64,000 bases of DNA from an uncultured Bacteroidia bacterium (GCA_965284645.1 OZ260106.1:342992-406991); one strand, 5' to 3'; numbered from the stretch's first letter, positions 4,707 to 52,735 are shown. Numbers and translations are program-made. Notes: generated from the sequence alone by a model not told the origin.

Positions 4707-5483
4707 ATGTCAAAACGTCCTACCATTCTGGTTACCAATGATGATGGAATTACTGCCCCTGGCATTCGGGCTTTAGTGGAAGCAATGCAGGAAATAGGAG
4801 ATGTGGTAGTGGTTGCCCCAGACAGTCCTCAAAGTGCTATGGGACATGCCATCACAATTAGCAAACCTTTACGATTATATAAAACCGAAATACACGGAGA
4901 GGTACTGGGCTACCAATGCAGCGGAACCCCTGTGGATTGTGTAAAACTAGCCGTAAACCAGATTTTACATAAGGCCCCAGATTTATGTGTGAGCGGAATC
5001 AATCATGGAAGCAATTCTTCCATCAACATCATTTATTCGGGCACCATGAGTGCCGCCATGGAAGGGGCCATTGAAGGTATTCCTAGTATCGGCTTTTCTT
5101 TGCTGAACTATTCCTTAGAAGCTGATTTTTCAGCTGCCAAAGAAGTGGCTTCCAGGGTGGTAAAACAGGTTTTGAAAAATGGTCTGCCAAAGGATACTTT
5201 GTTAAATGTTAATATTCCAAACCTCCCCTGGGATCAAATGAAAGGCATGAAAATTTGCCGACAAGCCCGGGCCAAATGGAAGGAAGAATTTGATGAAAGA
5301 AAAGACCCTACAGGTCGACCATACTATTGGCTTACTGGTAAATTCATTAACATGGACAAGGGTGAAGACACCGATGAATGGGCTTTGGAAAATGGGTATG
5401 TATCTATAGTTCCAGTACAATTTGATTTAACCGCCCACCATGCTGTTTCGTTGCTAAACCAATGGGAATTCAATGGAAAGTAA
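4707..5483 (+). CDS. surE: 5'/3'-nucleotidase SurE
   Basis: MSKRPTILVTNDDGITAPGIRAL.. is the canonical SurE N-terminus (DDG metal site). Length is about 258 aa. The start was chosen at the internal Met11 of the ORF-track ORF. Confidence 0.9.
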   Translation: MSKRPTILVTNDDGITAPGIRALVEAMQEIGDVVVVAPDSPQSAMGHAITISKPLRLYKTEIHGEVLGYQCSGTPVDCVKLAVNQILHKAPDLCVSGINHGSNSSINIIYSGTMSAAMEGAIEGIPSIGFSLLNYSLEADFSAAKEVASRVVKQVLKNGLPKDTLLNVNIPNLPWDQMKGMKICRQARAKWKEEFDERKDPTGRPYYWLTGKFINMDKGEDTDEWALENGYVSIVPVQFDLTAHHAVSLLNQWEFNGK

Positions 5484-5790
5484 AATAAAATTGCAAAAAG
5501 ACTCGAAACTAACGGGTTTCTTATCTGGGTTGGTTTTACCTCCCATCTTCATGTATTTGTACTGGTTAATTTTTCTAAGAACTAGCCTTCCCGATTTGGT
5601 AATTTTCCGATTGATGCATCAAAGCCAATTGGCACCTTTGATTGGCTTATCCCAATTGGTCAATGCCGGACTATTTTTCTTTTTTATCAAAAAATGGGAA
5701 GCCGATGAAAGCAGCAAAGGCGTCATTTTCGCGATGCTGGTTTATGGTGCTATCATCGTTTACCTAAAAATGGATACATTATGGATGTGA
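5473..5790 (+). CDS. Small hypothetical integral membrane protein (3 predicted TM segments)
   Basis: 105-aa ORF overlapping the surE stop by 11 nt. It has three hydrophobic stretches (LSGLVLPPIFMYLYWLIFL; LIGLSQLVNAGLFFFFI; VIFAMLVYGAIIVYL). No family was recognised. Confidence 0.45.
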   Translation: MESKIKLQKDSKLTGFLSGLVLPPIFMYLYWLIFLRTSLPDLVIFRLMHQSQLAPLIGLSQLVNAGLFFFFIKKWEADESSKGVIFAMLVYGAIIVYLKMDTLWM

Positions 5791-5793
5791 CGA

Positions 5794-8700
5794 TTACCAT
5801 TTCGTTTCTCTGTCAAATAGCTCCTTCGATGCATTTTCTCCATTTTTGAAATAGTAAATACCACCCCAGTTCCATTTTACTTTTTGGTATTCATTTACAT
5901 TAGTGGGTCCGCGGTTTACCACTACCCGAGTTATGGTTTTATTAGTTTCTTGAATAATATCCTCGGATACCCCTTCAGGATACTTCTTGTAAAGCTCAGC
6001 CATGTAATCCGCCTTGGTTTTTGCAAGCGGTGCAACTGAAACTTGTCCATTTTTGGCTGAATACTCTGCCTCCAATTTTGCCCTTAGTTCTTTTTCTATT
6101 TCTGCTTGTTTGCTCAAGGCGTCCTGTTTGGCCATTTCCTTAGCCTTCTTTTCAAAATCCTTTTTGGCATGAAACTCGGTAGAAGCCTGCCACTGCTCTT
6201 CATTGCGTTTGAGTCGGGCCGCTTCCATTTCAGCCTTTTCTTTAGCACTCATTTCTTTATGCTCTGCTGCAAGTTTTGCAGCCTCGGCTTTGTTCAGTCT
6301 ATCCAACTCCATTTGCCTTTCTTTTTCAATGGAGGCAGCAGTTTTAGCCGAATCTCTCTTCTGCATATCAAAGGCTAACTGTTCTTCCCTCGTTCTTTTT
6401 TTAGCCTCCTTTTCGGCCGTTGCTTTTTCAAGAGAGGTTTGTTTTGCCTCGGTATTGGCAGTGAGCTGTGCTTGTCTTAAGGAATCTTTCTCGGCTTTGG
6501 TTTCTGTTCTGTATTCTTTAGTTTTTTCTTGCCATTGGGCTTTTGCTGCATCGTATTCCTGCTTTTGCTTTTCTTTAAAGGCGGTTTCAGCTGCTTTCAC
6601 CGAATCCCTTACAAAAGCTTCTCTGGCAAGTTGCGCCTCCCTTTTCTGTTGAAATTCCGCTTTATCTTGGTCTGCCTTTTCTTTCGACACTTGTTTTTGG
6701 TTGTTAAAAACCTCCACTTGGCTTGTTCGAGTGGCATCCTTTTCCTGCTTTTGCTTTTCCCTGTATTCAGTTGTCATTTGAGTTAAACTCTCTTTCTCCA
6801 ACTGATGGATTTCGGCTTGTTTCGCCTTTTGCTCCTTTACAGCAGTTTGCACCGAGTCTCTTATCCTCGCCTCTCTTGCCAATTGCTCTTCCCTATTTAA
6901 TTGTCTTTCAGTTTTTGTAGTGGTAGCAATCTCCAAAGACCTCTGCTTGTCCGATTCGAATTCAGCCTTTTGAGCATTTCGAAGGCTATCCTTATTTTGT
7001 TTTTGGGTTTCTCTGTAGTTTGCCGTTTGGTGAAGCAATTCTTCCTTTTTCCTTTGGTATTCTGCTAATCGCGACTCCTTTTCCTGTTGGGCTTTCTGTT
7101 TAGCGGCTTCCCTTTCGGCAGTTTCCTCTTCTAAGAGTTTGGCCTTTTTCTCCTCATTCATCTTGGCTTCCAACTCATTCCTTATTTTCCTTTCCAACTC
7201 CATTCTTAGCGCTTCTTCTGCCTTTCTGTTTTCTTCTGCGGTGGTACTTTCTACAAATACTTCTGCTTCTAGCGCTTGTCGATCTTGCCAAGCTTCATCA
7301 TTCTTTGCCTTTTTCTCCTTTTGTTGTTCTAAATATAGTTTCTCTTGTTCCTTTTCGGCCAACCTTCTATTTTCCGCTTCCTCCCTTGCTTTTTGCAGGG
7401 CAAGGCGTTTTGCTTCTTCTTCCTGTCTTTTCTTTTCTTCGGCTTGAACCTTTCTTTGTTGGGCCTCTTCAAAGGCCTTTTGTTGTTTTTGACGTAATTC
7501 TTCTTCTGCACTTATGGCTGCTTTCTGCATCACCACTACATCTTGGGAGTGTGATTTGGCATCTGCTTCTTGTTTTGCCCTTTCCGAAGCTTCTTCTTTG
7601 GCCTTTTGTTGGGCCTTCATTTTCATTTCTATTTCAATTGCCTTTCTCTCTGCTTCTTGGGCAGCCCTTTGGTCGGCTTCTTCGGCTCCTTGTTGTTGGG
7701 CCAAAAGTGCCTTTTCCCTCTCTGCTTTGGCCTTGTTTTCAGCAGCAGTTCGGGCATCTTCTTCCGCCTTAGCTTGGGCTGCAGCCATACTTTTACGCCT
7801 TTCCTCCTCTTGTGCAATTTTTTCAGCTTGAGCCTTTGCAGAAACCTCTGCCGCTAGGCGCTTTTCTTCCTCTGCTTGGGCTAAGGCGGCGGCTATGGCA
7901 TTTTTCTTGGCTTCTTCTTGCGCTTTTTTGTCGGCCTCTGCCTTGGCCTTTGTCTCAGCTGCCATTCGTTTTTCTTCTTCGGCTTTTACCTTTGCTTCGG
8001 CTTCTGCCTTTTGCTTGTTTTCGGAAGCAATACGTTTATCCTCTTCGGCCTTAGCTTGGGCAGCAGCAATTGCCTTTTTCTTCGCCTCTTCTTGGGCTTT
8101 CTTTTCACTTTCGGCTTTTGATTGTGCCTCGGCAGCCAATCGTTTTTCCTCCTCTGCTTTGGCCTTTGCTTCTGCCTCTGCTTTCATTTTATTTTCTGCC
8201 GCAATCCGCTTATCTTCTTCTTCCTTCGCCTGTGCCGCTGCAATGGCTTTTTTCTTTGCTTCCTCCTTAGCCTTCTTTTCTGCTTCAGCTTGTGCCTCAG
8301 CTTCTGCTGCTAAACGTTTTTGTTCTTCAACCTTGGCTTTGGCCTCTGCTTCTGCCTTGGCTTTGGCTTCTGCGGCTATTCTTTTCTCTTCCTCCAATTT
8401 TGCTTTTGCCTCGGCTTCGGCCTTAGCTTTGGCTTCTGCGGCAATTCGAACGGCTTCTGCTTTGGCTTTGGCTTTTGCCTCAGCTTCAGCCTTGGCTTTC
8501 GCCTCAGCGGCCAAACGCTTTTCTTCTTCCGCTTTGGCTTTAGCTTCCGCCTCTGCTTTAGCTTTAGCCTCAGCAGCAATTCGAGCGGCCTCGGCCTTCG
8601 CCTTTGCTTCGGCTTCGGACTTTGCTTTCGCCTCGGCTTCGGCTTTTGCTTTGGCAGCTGCAGCCTCTTGCTTTTTAGCCTCTTCCATTGCCTTTTTTTC

Positions 8701-9234
8701 GGCCTGAGCTTTTGCTGCTGCCTCCGCTGCCTTTTTATCTTCAGCAATTTCAGCCGCCTTTTCTACTTCCTCCTGCTTCTTTTGGAACTGCATACTGTAA
8801 TCCAAGTCGTAGTTGAAATCCTGAGTTTTGTTGTCCCAACTGATTTTTGCAACCGGATTATTGTAAATCCCAACATTGGTATTGTCCTGGGGTTTGAACA
8901 ACTCCACAACAAAGGTAAACTCCGAGTTCCTAGAGGAACTATCATTCGGAATATCGGTTAGAAACTGAAGCTTTTTAGTAACATACCCTTCTTTCGAAAA
9001 CTCAACTATATATTCGGTTTTCAATCCAAGCTTATACAGAATTTTCCCGTTTTCGGTGGTTACAAATTCATCCTCTACCCTGCCCTTTTCGATATACTTA
9101 ACTGTAACTCCAGACAAGTTCTTTTTCCCTTCTTTCACTACTCCTTTTATCTCCAAATTTTGTGACCAAGTTTGAAGGGAAATAAAGAAGAACAGTATGA
9201 TGATTGGGAATTTCAGCCTACGTTTGTGCAGCAT
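5794..9234 (-). CDS. Secreted repeat protein: CarbopepD_reg-like N-domain, about 900-aa Ala/Glu/Lys-rich coiled-coil repeat region, small C-terminal globular domain
   Basis: The ORF track starts at 9276, but the likely start is Met15 (MLHKRRLKFPIIILFFFISLQTWSQN signal peptide). An N-terminal beta-sandwich-like segment (EIKGVVKEGKKNLSGVTVKYIEKGRV..) is followed by hundreds of residues of KAEAEAKAKAEEEKRLAAEAK-type imperfect tandem repeats (period about 58 aa), then Q/E/K/R-rich helix. The unique C-terminal end is ..ITRVVVNRGPTNVNEYQKVKWNWGGIYYFKNG... Codon usage is coherent over 3.4 kb. Confidence 0.7.
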   Translation of the reverse strand: MLHKRRLKFPIIILFFFISLQTWSQNLEIKGVVKEGKKNLSGVTVKYIEKGRVEDEFVTTENGKILYKLGLKTEYIVEFSKEGYVTKKLQFLTDIPNDSSSRNSEFTFVVELFKPQDNTNVGIYNNPVAKISWDNKTQDFNYDLDYSMQFQKKQEEVEKAAEIAEDKKAAEAAAKAQAEKKAMEEAKKQEAAAAKAKAEAEAKAKSEAEAKAKAEAARIAAEAKAKAEAEAKAKAEEEKRLAAEAKAKAEAEAKAKAKAEAVRIAAEAKAKAEAEAKAKLEEEKRIAAEAKAKAEAEAKAKVEEQKRLAAEAEAQAEAEKKAKEEAKKKAIAAAQAKEEEDKRIAAENKMKAEAEAKAKAEEEKRLAAEAQSKAESEKKAQEEAKKKAIAAAQAKAEEDKRIASENKQKAEAEAKVKAEEEKRMAAETKAKAEADKKAQEEAKKNAIAAALAQAEEEKRLAAEVSAKAQAEKIAQEEERRKSMAAAQAKAEEDARTAAENKAKAEREKALLAQQQGAEEADQRAAQEAERKAIEIEMKMKAQQKAKEEASERAKQEADAKSHSQDVVVMQKAAISAEEELRQKQQKAFEEAQQRKVQAEEKKRQEEEAKRLALQKAREEAENRRLAEKEQEKLYLEQQKEKKAKNDEAWQDRQALEAEVFVESTTAEENRKAEEALRMELERKIRNELEAKMNEEKKAKLLEEETAEREAAKQKAQQEKESRLAEYQRKKEELLHQTANYRETQKQNKDSLRNAQKAEFESDKQRSLEIATTTKTERQLNREEQLAREARIRDSVQTAVKEQKAKQAEIHQLEKESLTQMTTEYREKQKQEKDATRTSQVEVFNNQKQVSKEKADQDKAEFQQKREAQLAREAFVRDSVKAAETAFKEKQKQEYDAAKAQWQEKTKEYRTETKAEKDSLRQAQLTANTEAKQTSLEKATAEKEAKKRTREEQLAFDMQKRDSAKTAASIEKERQMELDRLNKAEAAKLAAEHKEMSAKEKAEMEAARLKRNEEQWQASTEFHAKKDFEKKAKEMAKQDALSKQAEIEKELRAKLEAEYSAKNGQVSVAPLAKTKADYMAELYKKYPEGVSEDIIQETNKTITRVVVNRGPTNVNEYQKVKWNWGGIYYFKNGENASKELFDRETKW

Positions 9235-10447
9235 TGAATTTCTTGTTCGATTAAAAAGTTTACAAATATCGTCCAATTACAATAAGATTCCAAAATTGGG
9301 AAAGCTTTTACACCATATTCCTCCTTTAAGTTACTGGGAAAGCCAGAATTTGCTCTTTAATCCTGATATTTTGGTCATTGGAGGTGGAATTGTCGGACTT
9401 AGTGCTGCCCTACATTCGAAATTGAGGTTCCCCCAAGCAAAAATCCTTGTTTTGGAAAGAGGCCTTTTACCCATGGGAGCCAGCACAAAAAATGCCGGTT
9501 TTGCTTGTTTTGGGAGTGCAGGCGAACTACGCGATGACCTCTCTACCCAATCTGAATCTGAGGTATTTGACCTAGTCAAAAACCGTTTCGACGGACTTTC
9601 CCTCCTGCGGCAAACCCTTGGCGATGAAGCCATCGAATTCGACCCTTGTGGAGGTTTCGAACTTTTTTCTCCAACCGAATCAGAACACTTTAATCATTGT
9701 CTTCATTCCCTTCCTCACCTCAACCAACAGTTACAAAGTATAACTGGTTATCCCGACACATACAGCCAAGTAGATGAAAAAATAGCTGCATTCGGATTCA
9801 AACAAACCTCGCATATGCTTTTTAACCGGTATGAAGGGGCCATCCATACCGGAAAAACAATGGTGGCATTGTGGAAAAAATGCATTGAACATGACATTAT
9901 GGTTTTGAACGGAATGGAATGCAAAGCGCTTGTTTCGCAATCCAATGGGACAAAGATTGAACTTCATACAGGCCATGATTTGTTTGCAGCAAAAACCATC
10001 CTAGCCACAAATGCCTTTGCTACTCAGCTTCTACCTGAATTGGATGTAAAACCCGGCCGTGCCCAAGTTTTGATAACCAATCCAATCGAAAACCTGCCCT
10101 TTTCAGGTACCTTTCATTTTGACCGGGGCTATTTTTATTTCAGAAATGTAGGGAATAGGGTGCTGTTTGGTGGAGGCAGAAACCTTGACTTTTCTGGAGA
10201 AACAAGCTTCGACTTCAAAACCACTTCCCGCGTTCAACTGCAACTCGAAACCTATTTAAGGGAAATGATCCTACCCGGAAAAAATTTCAAAATCGAGCAA
10301 CGCTGGAGTGGCATTATGGGATTAGGACCAAACCGAAGCAGTATTTTAAAAAAGCTGGACGAACATGTTATCATTGCCGTAAGAATGGGCGGAATGGGCG
10401 TGGCATTGGGTAGTTTGATTGGTAAGAAAGCAGCTGAAATGCTTTAA
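9197..10447 (+). CDS. FAD-dependent oxidoreductase (DAO / glycine-oxidase-like family)
   Basis: Rossmann dinucleotide motif DILVIGGGIVGLSAALH..LVLERG, plus a GG.. region near the C-terminus typical of DAO-family proteins. The ATG at 9197 overlaps the divergent upstream gene, so the true start may be a TTG at 9296 or 9350 (the latter gives M/LLFNPDILVIGGG). Confidence 0.75.
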   Translation: MMIGNFSLRLCSIEFLVRLKSLQISSNYNKIPKLGKLLHHIPPLSYWESQNLLFNPDILVIGGGIVGLSAALHSKLRFPQAKILVLERGLLPMGASTKNAGFACFGSAGELRDDLSTQSESEVFDLVKNRFDGLSLLRQTLGDEAIEFDPCGGFELFSPTESEHFNHCLHSLPHLNQQLQSITGYPDTYSQVDEKIAAFGFKQTSHMLFNRYEGAIHTGKTMVALWKKCIEHDIMVLNGMECKALVSQSNGTKIELHTGHDLFAAKTILATNAFATQLLPELDVKPGRAQVLITNPIENLPFSGTFHFDRGYFYFRNVGNRVLFGGGRNLDFSGETSFDFKTTSRVQLQLETYLREMILPGKNFKIEQRWSGIMGLGPNRSSILKKLDEHVIIAVRMGGMGVALGSLIGKKAAEML

Positions 10448-11424
10448 TTCTCTTTTTTAATATCCAATTTCTCCAAATCCACATCTTCCTCTTCATCGTA
10501 ATACCTTAGCCAAGGATCCTCAAAGGTTTTACGCGTATTGGCCTTATCGATACTCAATAACATGGAAGGAAGGATGAATAGATTGGAAAACATTGCAATC
10601 ACCAAGGTAAAAGATGTTAACACACCCAAGGCCTTTGTACCTCCAAAGGTAGAAAAGCTAAAAATGCCAAAGCCACAAAACAAGACTACCGAAGTATAAA
10701 TAATACCAATGCTGGCTTCTTTCAGGGCTGCATTTACCGCAGTTTTTATGTTCCAATCATGGTGCTTCAACTCTTGCCTGTATTTGGCCAAAAAGTGAAT
10801 GGTATTATCGACTGCGATACCAAAGGCAATGCTAAAAACTAAAATGGTAGATGGTTTAATGGCAATCCCTGCCACACCCATAATAGCGGCCGTAAGCACT
10901 AGTGGAATTAAATTAGGGACTAAACAAACGAAAACCATTTGCAGGTTTGAAAACATCCCAGCCATTAACAAGGCCGTTAAAACCAAGGCCCAGAACAAGC
11001 TAGAATATAAATCGTCAATCAAGTAATCGGTACCTTTCAAAAATACAATACTGGTTCCAGTCATGGTTACCTCGTATTTTTTGGGATCGAAAATGCTATC
11101 GATTTTGGGTCGCAATTCGGTTTTAATACGGTGCAGTTCCAAGGTTCCAATATCTTTCATATGAGCACTTACTCGGGTAATTTGCCTGTTGCTATCAATA
11201 AAACTTTTCAGCATGTTTTGCTTTTGCTTGCCTACCTGCACATATTGCAGAATGAATACCTGCTCTTGGCTGGAAGGCAGACTGTATTTCGTACTATCGC
11301 CATAGTAAAAGCCTTGCTTTGAAAACTTCAACACCTCGTTGACTGAAAGTGGACGGGCAAATTCCTTGTATTCGGCCAAAACATCCTGCAATTTCTCCAA
11401 TTTCCTGAATACACTCGGATTCAT
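10444..11424 (-). CDS. MMPL/RND-superfamily transporter, C-terminal half (end of periplasmic loop 2 plus TM8-12)
   Basis: 326 aa. A soluble N-terminal about 150 aa is followed by five hydrophobic helices (LFWALVLTALLMAGMF.., LVPNLIPLVLTAAIMGVAGIAI, ILVFSIAFGIAVDNTIHF, IIYTSVVLFCGFGIFSF, LTSFTLVIAMFSNLFILP). Its ATG overlaps the stop of the upstream half (ATGA). Confidence 0.7.
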   Translation of the reverse strand: MNPSVFRKLEKLQDVLAEYKEFARPLSVNEVLKFSKQGFYYGDSTKYSLPSSQEQVFILQYVQVGKQKQNMLKSFIDSNRQITRVSAHMKDIGTLELHRIKTELRPKIDSIFDPKKYEVTMTGTSIVFLKGTDYLIDDLYSSLFWALVLTALLMAGMFSNLQMVFVCLVPNLIPLVLTAAIMGVAGIAIKPSTILVFSIAFGIAVDNTIHFLAKYRQELKHHDWNIKTAVNAALKEASIGIIYTSVVLFCGFGIFSFSTFGGTKALGVLTSFTLVIAMFSNLFILPSMLLSIDKANTRKTFEDPWLRYYDEEEDVDLEKLDIKKEN

Positions 11425-12827
11425 AACCCCTCTTTTTTCTTGGTATCCACACTAATTTCGAACGGCATCACCCCGTGGTAATTTTCTTCAAAATAGTGGA
11501 GGTCGTTCAGCACTGGGTGATTTTGCGGAAGGTCGTCGACGATGTTTCCCGTTGTTTTAATCTTGGAAATGTAAAACCCGCCCAAGCCCACAAACAGGAA
11601 GGAAACAATATAAATTAGATTGCGGTGATAATGGATGATGTAGCTAATCCAATCAACAATTTTATTGGTGTACTTGCTTTCGAGGTGACTGGTATCCTTG
11701 TTGGAAGGAGCCGGCAGGTAGCTCAAAATAATAGGCATCAAGGTGATACTGTGCACATACAGAATCATAATAGCGATGGTACTGATTACCCCAAATTCCA
11801 TTATTACCTGACTTTCGGTAAACGCAAAGGTTACAAAGCCGGCCGCAGTGGTGGCATTGGTTAAAAAGGTAGAATTTCCTACTTTACTTATCACCCGCAT
11901 CAGGGCTTTTACTTTATTGCCATGCGAGCGAAATTCGAAGTGGTATTTGTTGAGGATAAATACGCAATTGGGGACGCCCAGCACAATCAACAGGGTGGGC
12001 ACTATCGCCGTAAGAACCGAAATTTTATACCCAAAAAGCACATTGAGTCCCATGCACCAAACCACGCCAATACCAACAGTAAGCATGGAATAGAAAACCA
12101 CACTGAAAGAGCGGAAGAAAAAGTACATGATCAAGGCAAGGGCCAAGGAGGCCAAGATCATAAACACCCGTAACTCGCGCTGAACCAGCACCGAAAGCAC
12201 CGTTCGGATGTAAGGCAAACCCGAATAATGGACTTCTATACCGGCTGATTTACTGTAGGCATCGCCGATTTCTTGAACCTTTTGGATAAATTCATTTCGG
12301 CCTTTGCTGTCCAGTAATTTGCGGTCCATGGTAACCGCCATCATATAGCTGTGGGTGGTGGGATTGTATAGAATATCGCGGTAAAAAGGCAAGGAAAAAA
12401 TCTGGGCCTTCAAAGAGTCTAATTCTGCTTGGGAACGGGGACGGCGGTTAAGAATAGGTTTGAACTCGAATTTCTTGAGCGAGTCGTTGCGGTTGAGATT
12501 AAACACACTGGCAACACTCACCACACCTTCTACTCCTTTCAGTTCTTTGAGGGTTTGACTAAGGTCGTACCATTTCAAAAAATGATCCAGTTGAAACAGG
12601 TTTGAGTCCGTGACACCAATTACAAATACGTTTCCATCTTCCCCAAAAGTCTTTTTAAACTTGTCGTATTCGATATAAGTGGTATCGTCGGTTGGCAGCA
12701 GTTTGGCAAAATCGTACCTAATTTCATTTTTACTTGAAAGCCAACCAAACCAAGCCGTAATAGCCAAGGTAACCAGCAAAATTGCCAATCGTTGTCTAAG
12801 GAGAATTCTACCGATAACTTGCCACAT
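11421..12827 (-). CDS. MMPL/RND-superfamily transporter, N-terminal half (TM1, periplasmic loop 1, TM2-7)
   Basis: 468 aa. TM1 (LAILLVTLAITAWFGWL) is followed by an about 180-aa loop with the MMPL-like FAKLLPTDD..Y..F...FGEDG signature, then six TM helices. Together with the downstream ORF it makes up an about 794-aa 12-TM RND/MMPL exporter architecture. Confidence 0.7.
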   Translation of the reverse strand: MWQVIGRILLRQRLAILLVTLAITAWFGWLSSKNEIRYDFAKLLPTDDTTYIEYDKFKKTFGEDGNVFVIGVTDSNLFQLDHFLKWYDLSQTLKELKGVEGVVSVASVFNLNRNDSLKKFEFKPILNRRPRSQAELDSLKAQIFSLPFYRDILYNPTTHSYMMAVTMDRKLLDSKGRNEFIQKVQEIGDAYSKSAGIEVHYSGLPYIRTVLSVLVQRELRVFMILASLALALIMYFFFRSFSVVFYSMLTVGIGVVWCMGLNVLFGYKISVLTAIVPTLLIVLGVPNCVFILNKYHFEFRSHGNKVKALMRVISKVGNSTFLTNATTAAGFVTFAFTESQVIMEFGVISTIAIMILYVHSITLMPIILSYLPAPSNKDTSHLESKYTNKIVDWISYIIHYHRNLIYIVSFLFVGLGGFYISKIKTTGNIVDDLPQNHPVLNDLHYFEENYHGVMPFEISVDTKKKEGL

Positions 12828-24126: not shown

Positions 24127-26403
24127 CTACAACTTCACAATTCTTTTCACGATACTAGTGTTTTCAGTAGCAACTTTAACAGAGTAGATACCAGCAGCTA
24201 AAGATTGTACAGGCAGAACAATGGTGTTTTGTCCTTTGTTGGCTTTAACAACTTGGCTGTTAACTACCATACCAGACATGTTTACGATTTGTACACTAAG
24301 CTCTCCTTCGATTTTTGAATTCAAATTCAATTGAACCGATTCTTTAGCTGGATTAGGGAACAAATCTGTCATTTCAACCAAAGCTGGGTTTTTTTCAATT
24401 CCGGTAGTTACACCATCCGAATTGATAACCACCTCAACATTATTGATTTCGGTATTACCTGGCTCAATGGTAACGATCACAGGCGTAGTTGGCAATCCTA
24501 ATACTTCGGTATACACTTGGTAAGTTCCATAAGGAAGATTAGGGAAAGCAAAGGCTCCATCAGCTCCAGTCATTTCGTAGGCAAAGGCTTGGTTGCTCAT
24601 GTTCAACACCATTACTTGGGCATTGTTAATCGGATCACCAGGGCCTTCGGTTTTGTTGGCACCTTGACTAACCAATCCACCAATGAAACCAGGACCACCA
24701 GGGTTGTTTCCACCTACTAAATCAATAATCAAATAAGTGCTTGAAGCAGAGAATACATATGAAGCACCCGACCAGAACAAGCTATTACCATAGTAAGTAG
24801 GCAAGAAATTAGCAAAGTCAGGTGAAGAGGAATTCAAAGCAGCTTTTACTAAGTAGGTTCCAGCGCTAAGTCCATCGAAATGGAAGTAACCATTTGAATC
24901 GGCTACGGCATCTACTAAATTTAAAGCTAAACCAAGATTAGTTGAATCAACAGAAATCAAATAAACAGTAGCGTCGGTCACATTCATTGAATCGGCCATA
25001 ACTGAGCCATAGATGGTATAGGTTGGCTGGAAAGTTCCTGTATTAACCTGTCCGCAGTAGGAGTTCTGACAACCATTAGCACCATAAACAGTTAAGCAAA
25101 CAGTGTAAAAAGAAGCTGAAGGATAAAGATGCGTTGGATTTGCTTGGGTTGACGAAGTATTATCACCAAAAGACCAAACATACTGCGCGTTTGGACTACT
25201 GTAAGAAGTAAATTGAACTTCTAAGTCGTTGGCTGGCGATAAGGTATAGGTGAAATAGGCATTACAAGAATCCCCTGAAATAACGGAGTCAGAAACAAAA
25301 ATATACTGGCAAGTAGTGCTTTGGCAACCGGCATTGTCGAAGATCGTTAAACATACATAAGCAGTATCATATTGACCAGATACAGCAAAAGTATGCGTTG
25401 GATCGCCTGTTGATGCACCAGAACCATCTCCGAAACTCCAAGAGTAATTGTATGAATTGGCAGGAGAAGAAGAGGTTTGTTGGAAGGCAATAGTATTGTT
25501 GCTTACATATGAATAGGTGAAAGATGCTTGGCAGTTTGGACCTACAACTGAATCATTCACAACAATAGTTTGACAAAATTGATCAAAACATGAATCAACC
25601 ATGTTGTAAACACTTAAACATACATTGTAAGTTCCGTTTGAGAAGTAATGATTTGGATACATAGATGTACCAAGCGCACTTCCATCACCAAAATCCCAAG
25701 AATAAATCAAATCCTGACTTGGACTATTTGGCAAGAAATAAATTACATTGGCAGTGCTGTCGTAGGTGGCAAAACTTGCATCACATCCTGAATTCGAATT
25801 AGGAATAGGGTAAATAAATTGACAACTTGTACTTTGACATCCATTTGAATTATAAATAGTTAAACACACTTGGAAACTATCCGATGGATTTCCAGAATAA
25901 ACATGCACCGGATCGCTCGTTGAAGCAGTTGAACCATCACCGAATGACCAGTCGTAATTGAATCCACTTCCAACAGTTTGCTGAAAATATACTTCGCCAG
26001 TATTGGAAAGGGAGTAAACAAAGGCCGACTGACAAGGCGTTGCAGATGGATCACAGCTCAAACTAAAATCACGGTCAACTTGAGTTACCGTACCTTGGTT
26101 GTTTTGAACCTGACCACTTGTTATAGTGCCACAAGCTAAAATAGAAACTGTATAAACTACATTTGGTCCAGGAATAGAACCACCTGGAATTCCGAACGAA
26201 TAATACCCATTCGAATCGGTGACGGTACAATCATAATAGCTAAAATTCGATTGAACCGTAGAGTCGGTAGCCACGCATACTTGTACATTTCCGGCGGGGC
26301 CATTGAGGCCGGAAACGGTGCCCGTAATGTAAAAATTACCTTGGGCGATTGCACTAAAGCATCCCGCTATAAATGCAAACATTAGGATTAATTTGTTTTT
26401 CAT
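24127..26403 (-). CDS. Secreted PKD-repeat protein with T9SS C-terminal sorting domain
   Basis: The start was chosen at Met43 (MKNKLILMFAFIAGCFSAIAQG signal peptide). At least four PKD-like modules carry the WSFGDGS / WDFGDGS signature. The C-terminus LFPNPAKESVQLNL...GIYSVKVATENTSIVKRIVKL is a T9SS CTD. Confidence 0.8.
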   Translation of the reverse strand: MKNKLILMFAFIAGCFSAIAQGNFYITGTVSGLNGPAGNVQVCVATDSTVQSNFSYYDCTVTDSNGYYSFGIPGGSIPGPNVVYTVSILACGTITSGQVQNNQGTVTQVDRDFSLSCDPSATPCQSAFVYSLSNTGEVYFQQTVGSGFNYDWSFGDGSTASTSDPVHVYSGNPSDSFQVCLTIYNSNGCQSTSCQFIYPIPNSNSGCDASFATYDSTANVIYFLPNSPSQDLIYSWDFGDGSALGTSMYPNHYFSNGTYNVCLSVYNMVDSCFDQFCQTIVVNDSVVGPNCQASFTYSYVSNNTIAFQQTSSSPANSYNYSWSFGDGSGASTGDPTHTFAVSGQYDTAYVCLTIFDNAGCQSTTCQYIFVSDSVISGDSCNAYFTYTLSPANDLEVQFTSYSSPNAQYVWSFGDNTSSTQANPTHLYPSASFYTVCLTVYGANGCQNSYCGQVNTGTFQPTYTIYGSVMADSMNVTDATVYLISVDSTNLGLALNLVDAVADSNGYFHFDGLSAGTYLVKAALNSSSPDFANFLPTYYGNSLFWSGASYVFSASSTYLIIDLVGGNNPGGPGFIGGLVSQGANKTEGPGDPINNAQVMVLNMSNQAFAYEMTGADGAFAFPNLPYGTYQVYTEVLGLPTTPVIVTIEPGNTEINNVEVVINSDGVTTGIEKNPALVEMTDLFPNPAKESVQLNLNSKIEGELSVQIVNMSGMVVNSQVVKANKGQNTIVLPVQSLAAGIYSVKVATENTSIVKRIVKL

Positions 26404-26632
26404 GTCTTTAATTTTAAAAGGTTGACGATGCAAATGTGCAACGGTATTTCCAAATAAAAAGACTCTTTTGAACAATATCTTACGCATCCACAACCGCATT
26501 TTTAGAACATTTTTCTCTAATAATACCACAAATCAAGGATTTTAAATTCTCTACTTCTTACGCATAGTTTTATTTGAAAACTGCCGAAAACTTGAAATTA
26601 ACCCCTGATTTTCTGCAAAAACAAACACAATC

Positions 26633-34695: not shown

Positions 34696-37428
34696 ATGAA
34701 GAAAAAAATTCTTTACGGAATCCTATTGTTTTTTGCCCTTTTCATCGGAACTTTAGTTGCCATTCCCTTTTTGTTCAAAGACAAAATCATCGCCAAAGTA
34801 AAAGAAGAAGCCAATAAAAAGTTGGAAGCCAAAATGGACTTTGGTGATTTCGACCTTACCTTGATTCGAAGCTTCCCAAACCTTCGATTTGAATTGGAGA
34901 ACTTTTCATTGGTAGGAATAAAAGATTTTGAAGGCGACACCTTGGTTTCCATCAAATCCTTTTATGTGAATTTAGATTTGATGAGTGTTATCAATGGCGG
35001 ACAGTATAAGGTAAACGGACTTTTCTTGGACCAACCCAAAATCAAAGCCTTAAAACTTAGCAATGGAATGGCCAACTGGAACATCATGAAACCTAGTCCG
35101 GCCGAGGAAACTACACCAGAAAAGGAAGGAAGCACTTCTTTTAGCTTGTCTTTGAAAAAGTTAGAAATTACGGATGGTGTTATTCGTTTTGATGACGACA
35201 GTTCTAAAATCCATACGTATTTGAAAGATTTGGATTATACCTTGAGTGGAGACTTTTCGGAGGCCCAAACTAGTCTCGAAAATGAACTCAAAATTGAAAG
35301 GATGGATGTAAGCTATGGTGGAATTAGCTATTTCAACAAAACCAAAGTAGCTCTTGATGCCACAATTGATGCCGATTTGGTGAAGAGCAAATACGTTTTG
35401 AAAGACAATTCTTTGGTCTTAAACGCCTTGGAATTGGCTTGGGAAGGGTATGTTGAAATGCCCGCCAACGACATTACTATGGATTTAAAATTTGGAGCTA
35501 AAAAAACGGAGTTTAAGAATATTCTTTCTTTGATTCCGGCCATTTTCATGAAAGATTTTGAATCAGTAAAAACCAGCGGAAAACTTGGATTGGACGGCTA
35601 TGCCAAAGGTGTATACAACGAAAAAATGTTACCGGCTTTTGGGTTAAAAATCTTGGTCGAAAATGGCTACTTTAAATACCCAAGCTTACCGAAAGACGTA
35701 AAAAACATAGCTATCAATGTGGATATCAGCGGAAAAGGCACACCAGACAATACCGTAATCGATATTAAAAAGTTCCACTTCGACATTTCAGAAAACCCAG
35801 TTGATATTGCACTATTGATAAAAACACCTATATCAGACCCCGCTATCAAAGGAACAATACTAGGTAAAATCAATTTGGGTAGTTTGGGCGATGTCATTCC
35901 ATTGGAGAAGGAAGAGAAGTTGAACGGTTCGGTGATAGCAGATATCAAATTAGAAGGGAAACAAAGTATGATTGACCGCAAAGCATACGAGGAATTCAAA
36001 GCCGACGGACAGTTGATTTTAATGGATATTGTTTACAATACAAAGGCTGTAAAACTTCCGGTAGAGATTAAAAAGGCTTATTTGAATTTCTCTCCCCAAT
36101 TTTTGGATTTAAGTCAGTTTGAAGCTAAAATCGGCAAAAGTGATTTGAACATGAAAGGAAAAATTGAGAATTTCTTGGCCTACTACTTCAAAAATGAGAC
36201 CTTGAAAGGCGATTTCACATTCCAATCAAACACCTTAAATGCAGACGAACTCATGGCTAGTGTTCCTGAGGATGGAGAGCCTCAAGCACCAGATACAGCA
36301 GCGCTTACCGCACCAGATGTTCCAAGCAACCTGGATGTAAAATTGTCCACTACCATTGGTCATTTAACGTATGATGTATATGATTTGAAAAATATTAGTG
36401 GGGTTGTTACGGTAAAAAACAAACAAGCTGATCTTTCGAATTTAAAAGCCAATATGCTGGATGGACAAGTAGTGATGAACGGACGATACAATGTTGAAAA
36501 TAGCTTAAAACCCAAAGTAGATTTTGATTTGGCGGTAAGTGATTTTGATATTCAAAAAACCTTCAAAACTTTTAATACAGTTGAAAAGCTGGCCCCAATA
36601 GCCAAACAGGCCCAAGGCAAATTTAGCACAGGTATGAAATTCAATGCCGTATTTGACCAAGCCTTAAATCCCGATTTAAAATCCCTCAACGGAGGAGGAA
36701 TCCTTACAACGAAATCGGTTACCATAACCAACTTTGAACCCTTGAACAAAGTGGCCGATGCCTTGAAAATGGATAAGTACAAAAAACTTGCCCTAAACGA
36801 CGTAAAAGTTCAATATGAATTCAAAGATGGAAAAGTTGAAGTGAAACCCTACGATTTAGCCTTGGGCAAATCCAATGTCAACATTGCCGGATTTACAGGA
36901 TTTGACCAAAGTTTAGATTACAACATGAAATTTACCATTCCTACCAGCGAAATGCCAGCACAGGCAACCCAAGCCGTAAATGGACTTTTGGCACAAGCCA
37001 ATAAAGCCGCTGGAACCCAATTAAGTCTGGGCGAAAAGGTAAATATTGATGTAAAAGTCGGTGGAACCATCACCAAACCAACCGTTAAAACTGGATTAAA
37101 GGACGCCGCTAAAAATGCAGTAGACGATTTGAAAAAACAAGCCGAAGAATTGGCCAAACAAAAACTGAAAGAAGCTGAGGAAAGAGCAAAAGCGGAAGCC
37201 GAAAAACTAAAAAAACAAGCTCAGGATGAGGCTGCTAAGTTGAAAAAACAAGCAGAAGACAAGGCCAAAGCCGAAGCCGATAAATTAAAAGCAGAGGCCG
37301 AAAAGAAAAAGAAAGAACTGGAAGCAAAAGCCAAAGCAGAAGCAGAGAAAGCTAAAAAGGAAGCTGAAGAAAAAGCCAAAAAAGAAGCTGAAAAAGGTTT
37401 GAGAAATCTCTTTGGAGGTAAAAAATAA
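34696..37428 (+). CDS. AsmA-family protein with Lys/Ala/Glu-rich C-terminal tail
   Basis: 910 aa. Has an N-terminal signal anchor (ILYGILLFFALFIGTLVAIPFLF). The long beta-rich body is typical of AsmA/TamB-like proteins (..DFGDFDLTLIRSFPNLRFELENFSLVG..). The last about 110 aa are KAEAEKLKKQAQDEAAKLKKQAEDKAKAEADKLKAEAEKKKKELEAKAKAEAEKAKKEAEEKAKKEAEKG. A TACTTTTG -7-like motif lies at 34661. Confidence 0.75.
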   Translation: MKKKILYGILLFFALFIGTLVAIPFLFKDKIIAKVKEEANKKLEAKMDFGDFDLTLIRSFPNLRFELENFSLVGIKDFEGDTLVSIKSFYVNLDLMSVINGGQYKVNGLFLDQPKIKALKLSNGMANWNIMKPSPAEETTPEKEGSTSFSLSLKKLEITDGVIRFDDDSSKIHTYLKDLDYTLSGDFSEAQTSLENELKIERMDVSYGGISYFNKTKVALDATIDADLVKSKYVLKDNSLVLNALELAWEGYVEMPANDITMDLKFGAKKTEFKNILSLIPAIFMKDFESVKTSGKLGLDGYAKGVYNEKMLPAFGLKILVENGYFKYPSLPKDVKNIAINVDISGKGTPDNTVIDIKKFHFDISENPVDIALLIKTPISDPAIKGTILGKINLGSLGDVIPLEKEEKLNGSVIADIKLEGKQSMIDRKAYEEFKADGQLILMDIVYNTKAVKLPVEIKKAYLNFSPQFLDLSQFEAKIGKSDLNMKGKIENFLAYYFKNETLKGDFTFQSNTLNADELMASVPEDGEPQAPDTAALTAPDVPSNLDVKLSTTIGHLTYDVYDLKNISGVVTVKNKQADLSNLKANMLDGQVVMNGRYNVENSLKPKVDFDLAVSDFDIQKTFKTFNTVEKLAPIAKQAQGKFSTGMKFNAVFDQALNPDLKSLNGGGILTTKSVTITNFEPLNKVADALKMDKYKKLALNDVKVQYEFKDGKVEVKPYDLALGKSNVNIAGFTGFDQSLDYNMKFTIPTSEMPAQATQAVNGLLAQANKAAGTQLSLGEKVNIDVKVGGTITKPTVKTGLKDAAKNAVDDLKKQAEELAKQKLKEAEERAKAEAEKLKKQAQDEAAKLKKQAEDKAKAEADKLKAEAEKKKKELEAKAKAEAEKAKKEAEEKAKKEAEKGLRNLFGGKK

Positions 37429-37468: not shown

Positions 37469-39079
37469 ATGTCGGCCAAAGGCATTTCATTTCGTAAAAG
37501 CGGACTGTTTGATAGTTTAATTATTGATTTTGTAGAAGGCCAAAAAACAGCTCTTGAATTTGCCGGCCTGCCTATGGAAGCCGATTCAATTCTTGAAAAA
37601 GCAAAAGAAAGAACTACTTTACCGATCAACCGACAAGCTTTAGTTTCGTCCTTGAAGGAAGCTTATTCAGGCAAAGAAAGGGAATTCCCTTTGGCTGTGG
37701 CGCAAATTGAAAGACTTTCCCAGTCCAATAGCTTTACTATTACCACTGGTCACCAACTTTGTTTGTTTACCGGGCCTTTGTATTTCATTTATAAAATCTT
37801 TTCCGTTATTAAATTGGCCAAACAGATGGAGGAAAAGGCCAAAGAAAAAGGATTGGATTACCAGTTTGTACCTATTTACTGGATGCATACCGAAGACCAT
37901 GACCTGGCCGAAATAAACCATTTCTACCTCTTTGGAAAAAAAATAGAATGGCAACCCCTGGAAAAAGGAATGGCAGGAACTATTTCTACCCAAGGTTTGG
38001 AAAAGCTATTTAATGAGTTAGAAACCTTGTTTGGCACTTCTAGTCTTGGCCTTGAAATAGCAGCGTTTTTTAAAAGGATCTATTTAGAAAATCAAAACCT
38101 AGCGGCTGCCACCTTCCAACTAGCCAACGAACTGTTTGCCGAATATGGTTTAGTGGTTTTGGATCCTAGGGCCAATCAGCTGAAAGCACAGTTTAGCTCT
38201 TACCTTAAACATGATATTTTTCAAGGACAAAATGCAACTTTGGTAGAAGCTACCAATAGGCAACTGGAGGAAAAGGGCTATAAATCCATGGTAAATCCGC
38301 GAGAAATCAATGTTTTTTATACTGGTGATGGTTTTAGAGAGCGCTTGGTAAAGGAAGGCAATGACTATTTAGTGCTAAATACCTCGTTTCGTTTTACCAA
38401 AACAGAATTGGAAACAGAGTTGGATTCACACCCCGAACGGTTTAGTCCAAATGTAGTGCTTCGGCCCATGTTCCAAGAATTTATTTTGCCCAATGTGGCC
38501 TATGTTGGCGGAGCCGGTGAATTGGCTTATTGGATGCAGTACCGCTCTATGTTTCAGGCAAATGGCATTAGCTACCCAGTTTTGTGGCTTCGAAATTCCC
38601 TTGTTTGGATGGATCAAGGCATTGCAGCCCGCCTTTCCCGCCTAGGTTTAGCCCCGGAGGATCTTTTCCTGGAGGAAGAGCGTTTAGTTAAGCAGTTTGT
38701 AGCTCTCAATACGGATGTACTCGATTTGGAGGATATTAAAGCTGGTATGCGTCCTTGGTTGGATAAGGCCATTGCCTTAGCTGCTGAAACCGATAAAAGT
38801 TTGGAAGGTGCTGCCAGAGCGGAGGTTCAAAAAATAATCAATGGCTTAGAAAACCTGGAAAGCAAAATGATTCGGTCGTCAAAAGTAAAACTTGAAACCC
38901 AAATCAATCAAATCAAAAAGCTGAAGGAAAAGCTCTTTCCTAAAGGGGTCCTTCACGAACGTCAAGACAATTTCAGCAATTTCTACTTGCAATACGGAAA
39001 GGACTGGTTTACAACCGTATATAACACGATTCAACCCTTTGAAAAAGAGCTAAAAATCTGGGTAGATGGGGAAGTTTAA
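37469..39079 (+). CDS. bshC: Bacillithiol biosynthesis cysteine-adding enzyme BshC
   Basis: 536 aa. GHQLCLFTGPLYFIYKIFSVIKLAKQ and PIYWMHTEDHDLAEIN correspond to B. subtilis BshC GQQAGLLTGPLYTIHKIISIIQLAKQ and PVFWVAGEDHDLDEIN. The C-terminal coiled-coil is as in BshC. Confidence 0.85.
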   Translation: MSAKGISFRKSGLFDSLIIDFVEGQKTALEFAGLPMEADSILEKAKERTTLPINRQALVSSLKEAYSGKEREFPLAVAQIERLSQSNSFTITTGHQLCLFTGPLYFIYKIFSVIKLAKQMEEKAKEKGLDYQFVPIYWMHTEDHDLAEINHFYLFGKKIEWQPLEKGMAGTISTQGLEKLFNELETLFGTSSLGLEIAAFFKRIYLENQNLAAATFQLANELFAEYGLVVLDPRANQLKAQFSSYLKHDIFQGQNATLVEATNRQLEEKGYKSMVNPREINVFYTGDGFRERLVKEGNDYLVLNTSFRFTKTELETELDSHPERFSPNVVLRPMFQEFILPNVAYVGGAGELAYWMQYRSMFQANGISYPVLWLRNSLVWMDQGIAARLSRLGLAPEDLFLEEERLVKQFVALNTDVLDLEDIKAGMRPWLDKAIALAAETDKSLEGAARAEVQKIINGLENLESKMIRSSKVKLETQINQIKKLKEKLFPKGVLHERQDNFSNFYLQYGKDWFTTVYNTIQPFEKELKIWVDGEV

Positions 39080-52570: not shown

Positions 52571-52735
52571 CCAAATTAAGCATTAGAAATGCATAAACGA
52601 TTAACCAGTTGTAAATCAATTTGTATGGCCAAATTGATAACAACTGCTATCCCGAAATTTCTTCGGGAGGGGTAAACCCAACTAAATCAAGTAGTTCGGA
52701 TTAATAAATCCTCCTATTGATTAATTTGGGTTAAA
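52567..52735 (+). repeat. Family-2 AT-rich repeat, ending inside or at the stop codon of the giant adhesin gene
   Basis: AACCCAAATTAAGCATTAGAAATGCATAAACGATTAACCAGTTGTAAATCAATTTGTATGGCCAAATTGATAACAACTGCTATCCCGAAATTTCTTCGGGAGGGGTAAACCC...CCTCCTATTGATTAATTTGGGTTAAAG. The element's last bases overlap the TAA of the 52731..>64000 gene. Confidence 0.9.

Follow-up and report, generated by a model that had tools for sequence, protein, structure and literature searches.

The window analysed here, a 64,000-nucleotide stretch of DNA from an uncultured Bacteroidia bacterium (GCA_965284645.1 OZ260106.1:342992-406991), carries on its minus strand an ORF for a putatively exported protein of 1146 amino acids, in which an N-terminal beta-sandwich (N-domain) and a small C-terminal domain (C-domain) are joined by a very long charged spacer (Table 1). 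The neighbouring genes are surE, a 105-aa ORF and genes for a DAO oxidoreductase and MMPL-type transporters, and a scan for promoters and terminators gave signals at background level. A TTG at 9276 is a possible alternative start that would lengthen the ORF; the metagenomic fragment P0001, which is 98% identical, starts at the same point as the frame in Table 1 (MLHKRRL...). Across ten loci encoding this protein or its relatives, no conserved partner gene was found: the flanks are made up of housekeeping genes that differ by lineage and give no functional clue, the exceptions being the divergent DAO oxidoreductase gene, which one relative shares, and a lone GldM-domain gene close to the gene for the family member P0010.

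Table 1. Features of the ORF and its product, with positions counted from the first letter of the window.
Feature	Position	Strand	Details and basis
Complete ORF	5794..9234	minus	1146 codons plus stop (5794-5796); ATG 9232-9234; 1146-aa product
Sec/SPase I signal peptide, residues 1-24	9163..9234	minus	Read from the sequence; predicted cleavage
N-domain, residues 25-143	8806..9162	minus	AF2 model, family-level PF13620 matches, Foldseek
Spacer, residues 144-1075, 932 aa	6010..8805	minus	Putative continuous alpha-helix, from composition and likeness to TolA domain II
About five tandem 22-aa units (AAEAKAKAEAEAKAKxEEEKRI), residues 196-306	8317..8649	minus	Repeat analysis; TRF periods of 66 and 24 nt
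Three tandem 58-aa units, residues 303-476, 64-83% identical	7807..8328	minus	Repeat analysis; TRF period of 174 nt
Three diverged 84-aa units, residues 722-973, 37-46% identical	6316..7071	minus	Repeat analysis
C-domain, residues 1076-1146, 71 aa	5797..6009	minus	phmmer family and AF2 model

The strand opposite the repeat tract shows long but spurious ORFs, and HMM scans of the whole protein are empty, both of which would suit a low-complexity ORF that is decaying or spurious and has no function. Against this reading, the frame runs unbroken for 1146 codons, the two end domains are conserved and give high-confidence models, homologue clusters number in the hundreds, and an orthologue is 49% identical across ~850 aligned columns. 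The homologues already refute a functionless ORF, to which we give practically no credence. The ORF is thus a genuine and intact frame, as originally predicted, and its plentiful homologues dispose of the proviso made beforehand that it might be a pseudogene remnant without any.

The N terminus (MLHKRRLKFPIIILFFFISLQTWS followed by Q) has the layout of a signal peptide: KRRLK supplies the basic n-region, the hydrophobic core spans 12 residues, and cleavage is predicted between TWS and Q. Bacteroidetes signal peptides follow a Q-rule, with Gln at position +1 (PMC5837995), and Gln occupies this position after the hydrophobic segment in 56 of the 59 family members. Because it has a signal peptide that conforms to the Q-rule, we judge the protein to be exported, in support of the secretion proposed originally. 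A lipobox Cys is absent from the N terminus and, as read from its sequence, the protein is a Sec-exported, non-lipidated envelope protein.

Past the predicted cleavage site, AF2 models the N-domain with a pLDDT of 94.1 as a seven-strand sandwich of the CarboxypepD_reg/transthyretin-like type, to which a conserved extra hairpin (NPVAKI...DFNYDLDY) is added. The match of this N-domain alone to CarboxypepD_reg is weak (E 0.04; 14.8 bits, against a Pfam cut-off of 32.3), the corresponding match to SdrD_B has an E of 7e-4, and a PDB sequence search with the N-domain profile returned generic sandwiches only. At the level of the family, PF13620 was matched by 35 of 40 N-domains (E<=0.01; best 4.8e-9), and Foldseek paired the model with the teneurin TTR domain, the SusC NTE (9hfj, E 2.4e-4) and carboxypeptidases D and M. 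Together with the AF2 model, these matches bear out the CarbopepD_reg-like beta-sandwich of the original prediction: the N-domain is a CarboxypepD_reg-like (transthyretin-like) domain, with PF13620/PF13715 affinity and a prealbumin-like sandwich. The same fold is found in the NTE of SusC-like TonB-dependent transporters, which is periplasmic in Bacteroidota. Compared with that NTE, the N-domain adds the conserved hairpin (P103, D119, Y122) and continues into a helix, whereas the NTE precedes a plug and barrel. K63 and D119 are invariant in the N-domain alignment (A2), and the domain runs directly into the long predicted helix of the spacer.

The C-domain bears the motif LAxKYPxGxTEE...EYxKVxxxWGGxYYFKNG...FxxET, has 11 aromatic residues among its 71, and is predicted to fold as a helix, a five-strand antiparallel sheet and a second helix (AF2 pLDDT 90.9). 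It had been described as a unique module of ~80 aa; it measures ~71 aa and is borne by 492 representative clusters at 50% identity (phmmer, E<1e-3), in essentially all of which it ends the protein (a median of 1 residue follows). Only an exhaustive phmmer search revealed this family. Word-indexed searches, whether started from either end domain or from the C-domain alignment, returned nearly nothing, namely fragments and entries called 'hypothetical protein', and none of the cluster names of the family is informative. The absence of a named family, as originally supposed, was confirmed by scans of Pfam and NCBIfam, which were empty for the whole protein and for the C-domain. The latter also matched no PDB sequence, and a literature search for the motif YYFKNG returned no paper. 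A Foldseek search with the C-domain model gave nothing significant (best E 0.03 in PDB and 0.06 in BFVD); the TylM1 methyltransferase and SMC-head sheets, which head the list, match only in part and were not taken as homologues. As the C-domain is without a structural neighbour, it offers no function to borrow.

The N-domain is also present in 71 of the 79 C-domain representatives of at least 400 aa, and the same order of parts is seen in orthologues and paralogues from seven Bacteroidota MAG contigs. The 1146-aa protein itself combines the signal peptide with +1 Gln, an N-domain matched by the A2 HMM (E 1.1e-42) and, at the extreme end, a C-domain matched by the HMM of the C-domain alignment (A1; E 3.4e-31); no other ORF within the window was matched by either HMM. 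These proteins make up a widespread, so far unnamed family in which two conserved end modules are joined by a highly variable spacer, and which looks restricted to Bacteroidota. The spacers of most relatives contain TPRs (for example, P0002, P0015, P0021, P0029, P0038, P0043 and P0089); scans of the full length and of residues 637-1063 found none in the 1146-aa protein. The C-domain-defined family, its coupling to the N-domain and its variable, usually TPR-bearing spacers are new relative to the original prediction.

The spacer of the 1146-aa protein is rich in Ala, Glu and Lys, which account for 80% of residues 160-500 (A 0.37, E 0.22, K 0.21) and 74% of residues 161-620; this tract and the Q/E/K/R-rich second half are both present as first described. 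Residues 160-1060 contain zero Pro and one Gly. Charged residues make up 46% of the spacer, with 215 K+R and 210 D+E. A DNA-level repeat, which had also been noticed at the outset, was located by TRF at ~7807-8652, with periods of 174 nt at 7967-8321, 66 nt at 8300-8565 and 24 nt at 8586-8652. The 58-aa period assigned to the whole tract is true of three units, whereas the residues from 196 to 306 form 22-aa units. The A/E/K tract differs between the two closest orthologues, being shorter by ~156 residues in L001. The spacer has grown by three rounds of tandem duplication, of 22-, 58- and 84-aa units. The 84-aa set, which is absent from the earlier description, carries conserved D-S-[VLA] motifs and is kept in the L001 orthologue.

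The original prediction regarded the spacer as a coiled coil that spans the periplasm or the surface. In a canonical coiled coil, hydrophobic a/d positions make up ~29% of residues and recur with a 3.5-residue periodicity. Bulky hydrophobics make up 4-10% of residues 160-500 and 10-22% of residues 620-1060, so the core positions of the first of these segments could not be filled, and the Fourier power at 3.5 residues equals background in both halves of the spacer. The 1146-aa protein is therefore probably not a coiled coil. Spanning the periplasm fares no better. A straight helix of 932 residues would have a contour length of ~140 nm, several times the width of any periplasm, and the spacers of 76 family members are anywhere between 33 and 2037 aa long (a 60-fold span). 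Both observations argue against a ruler fitted to the width of the envelope, and a helix of this length would have to run along the wall or double back, a requirement that a surface fibril would satisfy equally well. The absence of helix breakers from the central 900 residues is what a canonical dimeric or trimeric coiled-coil rod, acting as a rigid periplasm-spanning strut of defined length, would call for, and residues 620-1060 have enough bulky hydrophobics to allow local coiled-coil or helical-bundle segments. Ala-rich helices can, in addition, pack as 'alacoils'. Given the shortage of a/d candidates, the background-level periodicity, the spread of lengths in the family and even between close orthologues, and a contour length far in excess of periplasmic width, we consider such a rod distinctly unlikely.

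Low hydrophobic content and near-neutral charge, as seen here, are also features of single alpha-helix (ER/K) domains and of Ala-based (i, i+4) E/K peptides, and the AEAKAKAEAEAKAK pattern of the spacer pairs nearly every charged residue with an opposite charge at i+4. Opposite-charge i/i+3 and i/i+4 pairs number 0.45 per residue, compared with 0.28 in E. coli TolA domain II, and this charge pattern, along with the composition (net charge of +5 over 932 aa), would suit a candidate single alpha-helix. Single alpha-helix domains, at tens to ~200 residues, occur mainly in cytoplasmic proteins of eukaryotes, whereas the spacer is 932 aa long and belongs to an exported protein, with a helix that is read from composition. 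The spacer is a near-neutral polyampholyte whose composition is close to that of TolA domain II and of single-alpha-helix segments, and unlike that of a coiled coil with a hydrophobic core. If helical throughout, it would be among the longest uninterrupted Ala/Glu/Lys polyampholyte helices, and a natural place to see how single alpha-helices behave beyond the cytoplasm.

The compositional likeness to TolA domain II that had been pointed out originally is sound, the E. coli segment having A 0.40, K 0.19 and E 0.15. It raises the possibility of a TolA/TonB-type energy transducer, or a functional substitute for TolA, in a phylum in which no tol-pal loci have been identified (PMC12204202). The protein and TolA share a three-part plan, with an N-terminal hydrophobic segment, a long breaker-free helix (putative in the former) exposed to the periplasm and a small C-terminal globule. 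Yet composition-corrected BLASTP against E. coli TolA found nothing (best E 8.6), the uncorrected matches being purely compositional. The C-domain is unrelated to TolA III/TonB_C: the A1 HMM scored 2.0 bits on E. coli TolA, BLASTP gave no match, and no TonB_C or TolA model of Pfam or NCBIfam was matched. Assignment of a terminal domain to a well-characterised family such as the TolA C-domain, which was to count against the original prediction, has thus not come about for the C-domain. Residues 9-20 (FPIIILFFFISL) contain no His and no SHLS motif, and the TWS and Q that follow lead into a folded domain, so that the segment resembles a cleavable signal peptide ahead of a beta-sandwich rather than the SHLS transmembrane anchor of TolA. 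The helix would be 3.5 times longer than that of TolA (~260 aa), and no tolQ/R, exbB/D, tolB or pal gene is adjacent. With motif, domain III homology and gene context all failing, and only domain II composition in agreement, membership of the TolA group was rejected, and a TolA-type role is very improbable.

Whether the protein resides in the periplasm or on the cell surface bears on how the C-domain is read. Like the CTDs of T9SS cargo, the C-domain is strictly C-terminal, of similar size (70-90 aa for the CTDs) and apparently restricted to Bacteroidota. The host genome carries T9SS cargo of both types, and a 140-nm helix would suit the outside of the cell better than the periplasm. On these grounds the protein could be a surface or extracellular fibril or adhesin with a projecting helix, and the C-domain a new signal for outer-membrane export or anchoring, a third type of T9SS-like CTD. 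However, models of type A (Por_Secre_tail/TIGR04183) and type B (CHU_C/TIGR04131) matched neither the C-domain nor 66 family C-domains, although they found true T9SS cargo in the window (E 1e-14 and 1.6e-15, respectively). Solved T9SS CTDs form a 3+4 seven-strand Ig-like sandwich (PMC11285876), unlike the alpha/beta fold with five strands that AF2 predicts for the C-domain. Membership of either cargo type was thus rejected on HMM match and on predicted fold. In the relative P0010, a Zn-ribbon is followed by a TM segment with basic residues ahead of it and then by two tandem C-domains, an order that, with the usual topology, would place the C-domain on the periplasmic side of the inner membrane; a cleaved export signal does not explain two copies behind an inner-membrane anchor. 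Finally, D(S/T)(A/I/L/V/M/T) O-glycosylation sequons are enriched in the 1146-aa protein (5 observed, 0.93 expected), although their location within duplicated units means that they do not all count as independent. The orthologue conserves them as well. P. gingivalis uses such sequons mainly on periplasm-exposed or inner-membrane proteins and avoids abundant surface proteins (PMC8729774), which points away from an abundant surface protein here. We regard the surface reading as unlikely.

Periplasmic proteins of the PorE (PG1058) type offer a closer comparison. They combine TPRs with a CarboxypepD_reg-like fold in the Bacteroidota periplasm (PMC12204202, PMC12773672) and are exported, Bacteroidota-specific assemblies of a sandwich, TPR or helical modules and a C-terminal binding module (PMC5053529, PMC12773672, PMC12204202); the TPRs of the relatives of the 1146-aa protein add to the likeness. 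In contrast to PorE, the sandwich comes first here, lipobox, beta-propeller and OmpA_C are absent, an unrelated 70-aa domain forms the C terminus, and recognisable TPRs have been lost from the 1146-aa protein. We propose that the protein, a Sec-exported member of a Bacteroidota family, acts, probably within the periplasm, as a tether or scaffold with two heads, a reading that we consider about evenly balanced between right and wrong. Each end would bind a partner, with the long charged helix as an extended soluble spacer between them. Like its counterparts in PorE and SusC-type transporters, which bind protein partners, the sandwich may bind a protein, and the C-domain may bind a component of the envelope, putatively a glycan such as peptidoglycan. 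A bolder version, to which we attach a slight probability, makes the C-domain a new envelope-anchoring module (for peptidoglycan, LPS or another wall component) in the slot that OmpA_C occupies in PorE-like proteins, and the family a set of very long, longitudinal periplasmic tethers or tracks. Were this true, the tracks could, for example, belong to a hitherto unrecognized scaffold that organises the gliding and T9SS machinery or, alternatively, to a wall-stabilising system in a phylum without Tol-Pal.

Bacteroidota have no recognisable Tol-Pal; the organisation of their periplasm depends on multidomain proteins, PorE among them, that are still poorly understood. The family described here is sizeable and unannotated, and its hundreds of 50%-identity clusters are enough to seed a new Pfam entry. 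Its C-domain is confidently modelled, has no neighbour among sequence families or solved structures, and is almost obligatorily paired with a specialised CarboxypepD_reg domain. Two small, well-behaved domains are now open to ligand tests. Should the family prove to be only a generic periplasmic scaffold, it would be a routine extra entry among domains of unknown function. The device that the 1146-aa protein had been proposed to share with an AsmA-family protein reduces to a likeness of composition; the tail itself is real, the DUF748/AsmA-like protein encoded at 34696..37428 ending in ~100 aa of K/A/E-rich sequence.

The 1,146-residue main protein is encoded by an intact, genuine gene, as originally predicted: its ORF is unbroken on the minus strand, and the same start methionine is found in a metagenomic fragment of 98% identity. 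An in-frame TTG upstream of the ATG is a possible but less likely alternative start. At the N terminus, a basic n-region precedes a hydrophobic core of 12 residues and the sequence TWS|Q; there is no lipobox. Of 59 full-length members of the family, 56 have glutamine immediately after the hydrophobic segment, which fits the Q-rule described for signal peptidase I substrates in Bacteroidetes (PMC5837995, PMC10653852).

A word-indexed search with the last 90 residues of the protein returned nothing. An exhaustive phmmer search for the C-domain over 1.84 billion representatives matched 492 proteins at E ≤ 1e-3 (37 at E ≤ 1e-10), so the C-terminal module, originally described as unique, is not. 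In all but a handful of proteins, the match reaches to within a few residues of the C terminus (median, 1 residue after the domain). The consensus of the aligned family C-domains is LAxKYPxGxTEE...NxxIxRxIV...EYxKVxxxWGGxYYFKNGxSI...FxxET, and the structural model (pLDDT 90.9) consists of a helix, five antiparallel strands and a second helix. When 66 members were each scanned separately against Pfam and NCBIfam, only scattered chance matches were obtained; the best E was 0.76 in a sequence-profile search of the PDB, and 0.03 (PDB) and 0.06 (BFVD) with Foldseek. The C-domain is thus widespread yet unannotated, with no recognizable structural relative in the libraries searched.

The N-terminal region of the main protein alone matches SdrD_B (E 7e-4) and CarboxypepD_reg (E 0.04), both under Pfam's cut-offs. 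Among 40 aligned family N-domains, 35 match PF13620 (best E 4.8e-9). In a confident AlphaFold2 model (pLDDT 94.1, pTM 0.87), seven strands are followed by a short helix, then by an additional hairpin of two strands and finally by the beginning of the long helix. Foldseek matches the model to sandwiches of the transthyretin-like type: the N-terminal, periplasmic extension of a SusC transporter (9hfj), SdrD B, teneurin TTR and carboxypeptidases D and M. Together, the family matches, model and Foldseek results bear out the CarbopepD_reg-like β-sandwich originally assigned here.

The main protein belongs to an unnamed, fairly large and apparently Bacteroidota-restricted family of exported proteins, in which a CarboxypepD_reg-like N-domain and the unmatched C-domain are joined by a helical or TPR spacer that is hypervariable. 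This arrangement recurs in proteins encoded on seven Bacteroidota MAG contigs, and the N-domain is present in 71 of 79 C-domain representatives of at least 400 aa. The spacer ranges from 33 to 2037 residues (median 448) and contains TPR repeats in most members; in a subset comprising the main protein and its relatives on contigs L001 and L003–L007, it is TPR-free, nearly devoid of Pro and Gly and highly charged. The closest orthologue, on L001, shares 49% identity across ~850 aligned columns, and its A/E/K tract is shorter by ~156 residues, indicating that this tract grows and shrinks. Elsewhere, the C-domain lies behind MORN-variant repeats, or behind a single TPR-like unit and a Pro/Glu-rich linker. 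Among the ORFs of the window, the N- and C-domain profiles match only the main-protein ORF.

Composition is ordinary at both ends of the main protein. Ala accounts for 33%, Glu for 22% and Lys for 19% of residues 161-620, and E, K, A, Q and R are abundant in residues 621-1060, which agrees with the composition first described. The 58-residue period noted originally is also real, but it extends over 174 residues rather than about 450; the 84-residue units had gone unnoticed. Pro is absent from residues 160-1060 and Gly occurs there once; the spacer as a whole has 215 K+R and 210 D+E (net charge +5). Bulky hydrophobic residues make up only 4–10% of residues 160-500, and no Fourier peak at 3.5 residues is seen in either spacer half; a canonical heptad core is therefore impossible in the A/E/K part, and the remainder shows no sign of one, which argues against the coiled coil originally proposed. 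Instead, the AEAKAKAEAEAKAK pattern places opposite charges at i and i+4 all along, and opposite-charge pairs at i/i+3 and i/i+4 number 0.45 per residue, versus 0.28 in Escherichia coli TolA domain II. Ala-based E/K helices and single-α-helix domains are built in this way. If fully helical, as is presumed, the spacer would measure ~140 nm. This length, and the 60-fold variation in spacer length within the family, argue against a strut fitted to the width of the periplasm, and hence against the periplasm-spanning role first suggested.

E. coli tolA was retrieved and compared directly with the main protein. The composition of TolA domain II is near-identical to that of the tract, and uncorrected BLASTP gives 35–47% 'identity' in many registers; with composition correction, however, BLASTP left no match (best E 8.6), and TolA scores ~2 bits against the C-domain profile. 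TolA's SHLS transmembrane anchor is absent from the main protein, as is the tolQRB-pal context around its gene. The main protein was therefore rejected as a TolA, the likeness being physical and confined to domain II. In a published survey, tol-pal loci were not found in Bacteroidetes and a helical domain II was mainly gamma-proteobacterial (PMC12204202).

The type-A sorting domain on the 790-aa protein of the window indicates that the host has a type IX secretion system (T9SS). The 3700-aa ORF was scanned over its C-terminal 599 aa only; the final 600 residues hold multiple SprB repeats followed by a T9SS signal domain of type B (CHU_C), from which the product is predicted to be a giant cargo protein for gliding or adhesion, similar to SprB. 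With both proteins as positive controls, the CHU_C and Por_Secre_tail models gave no match to the main-protein C-domain. Solved T9SS C-terminal domains are seven-strand sandwiches (PMC11285876), which the predicted C-domain fold is not, and T9SS cargo was rejected as an identity for the main protein. The main rival reading, a surface fibril, would call for a C-terminal sorting or anchoring signal of a new kind, and we consider it unlikely. Two observations indirectly favour the periplasm. One related protein, P0010 (298 aa), begins with a Cys-rich Zn-ribbon and continues with a single transmembrane segment and a tandem pair of C-domains, an architecture that would tie the C-domain to the inner membrane. 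The main protein also contains five copies of the Bacteroidota O-glycosylation sequon, D(S/T)(A/I/L/V/M/T), versus 0.93 expected by shuffling (~1 in 1000 shuffles reach five). All are D-S-(V/L/A), at residues 750, 794, 878, 918 and 962, spaced by the 84-aa repeat, and their positions are conserved from one 84-aa unit to the next and also in the orthologue on L001, which suggests that the spacer may be O-glycosylated. In Porphyromonas gingivalis, O-glycosylation is characteristic of inner-membrane proteins and of proteins exposed to the periplasm, and abundant surface proteins avoid it (PMC8729774); sequon enrichment would accordingly favour periplasmic exposure. Our preferred reading, to which we give about an even chance, makes the main protein a long tether or scaffold with two heads, located in the envelope and probably in the periplasm. 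The original overall description was largely right, and the protein is a variation on the sandwich/TPR design already known among envelope proteins of Bacteroidota, here with an undescribed C-terminal domain.

Coordinates of the features described (window positions unless residues or another contig are named)
Feature	Location	Strand	Remarks
Main-protein ORF	5794-9234	-	ATG at 9234, stop codon 5794-5796; 1146 codons
In-frame TTG	9276	-	Upstream of ATG
174-nt repeat	7967-8321		Tandem Repeats Finder
66-nt repeat	8300-8565		Tandem Repeats Finder
24-nt repeat	8586-8652		Tandem Repeats Finder
22-aa units, about five	Residues 196-306		Protein-level counterpart of DNA repeats
58-aa units, three	Residues 303-476		64-83% identical
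84-aa units, three	Residues 722-973		37-46% identical
Five sequons	6346-6990 (residues 749-963)	-	
ORFs opposite repeat tract	7895-8707, 8320-8961, 7305-7772	+	Products Ala/Ser/Phe- or Leu/Phe-rich
surE			Convergent with main gene
105-aa hydrophobic ORF	5473-5790	+	Convergent with main gene; overlaps surE end, stops 3 nt from main gene's stop codon
DAO-type FAD oxidoreductase	9197-10447	+	Divergent from main gene
MMPL/RND-type ORF pair	10444-11424, 11421-12827	-	4-nt overlap
790-aa PKD/CarboxypepD_reg protein	24127-26499	-	Type-A Por_Secre_tail end, E 1e-14
DUF748/AsmA-like protein	34696-37428	+	DUF748 E 7.5e-15; K/A/E-rich tail ~37117-37425
BshC homologue (bacillithiol biosynthesis)	37469-39079	+	E 9e-111; directly downstream of AsmA-like gene
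3700-aa SprB-repeat ORF	52731-63833	-	CHU_C at end, E 1.6e-15
DAO-type neighbour of relative P0005	L008 5750-6907		44% identity
P0010 gene	L012 1201-2097		
Gene with GldM third and fourth domains	L012 4328-5167		Same strand as P0010 gene, ~2 kb downstream

No conserved operon partner was found among the family loci, and the main gene thus appears to stand alone. A DAO-type oxidoreductase with 44% identity to that of the window likewise diverges from the gene for P0005, and a gene with GldM domains follows that of the distant member P0010; housekeeping neighbours differ in other lineages. Alignment of the window's oxidoreductase begins at residue 38, which places its true start probably near 9305, clear of the main gene. 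The 105-aa ORF has no Pfam match and is a candidate gene. The long ORFs opposite the repeat tract were rejected as genes, being by-products of GCx/GAA/AAA codon repeats. The AsmA-like protein does end in the tail originally noted, ~100 K/A/E-rich residues with a composition like that of the main protein's spacer; for the 'shared device' proposed from it, the likeness is one of composition alone. Both ORFs of the overlapping pair match MMPL/RND-type transporter domains; they are either two separate genes or a single transporter gene that a frameshift has broken in two.
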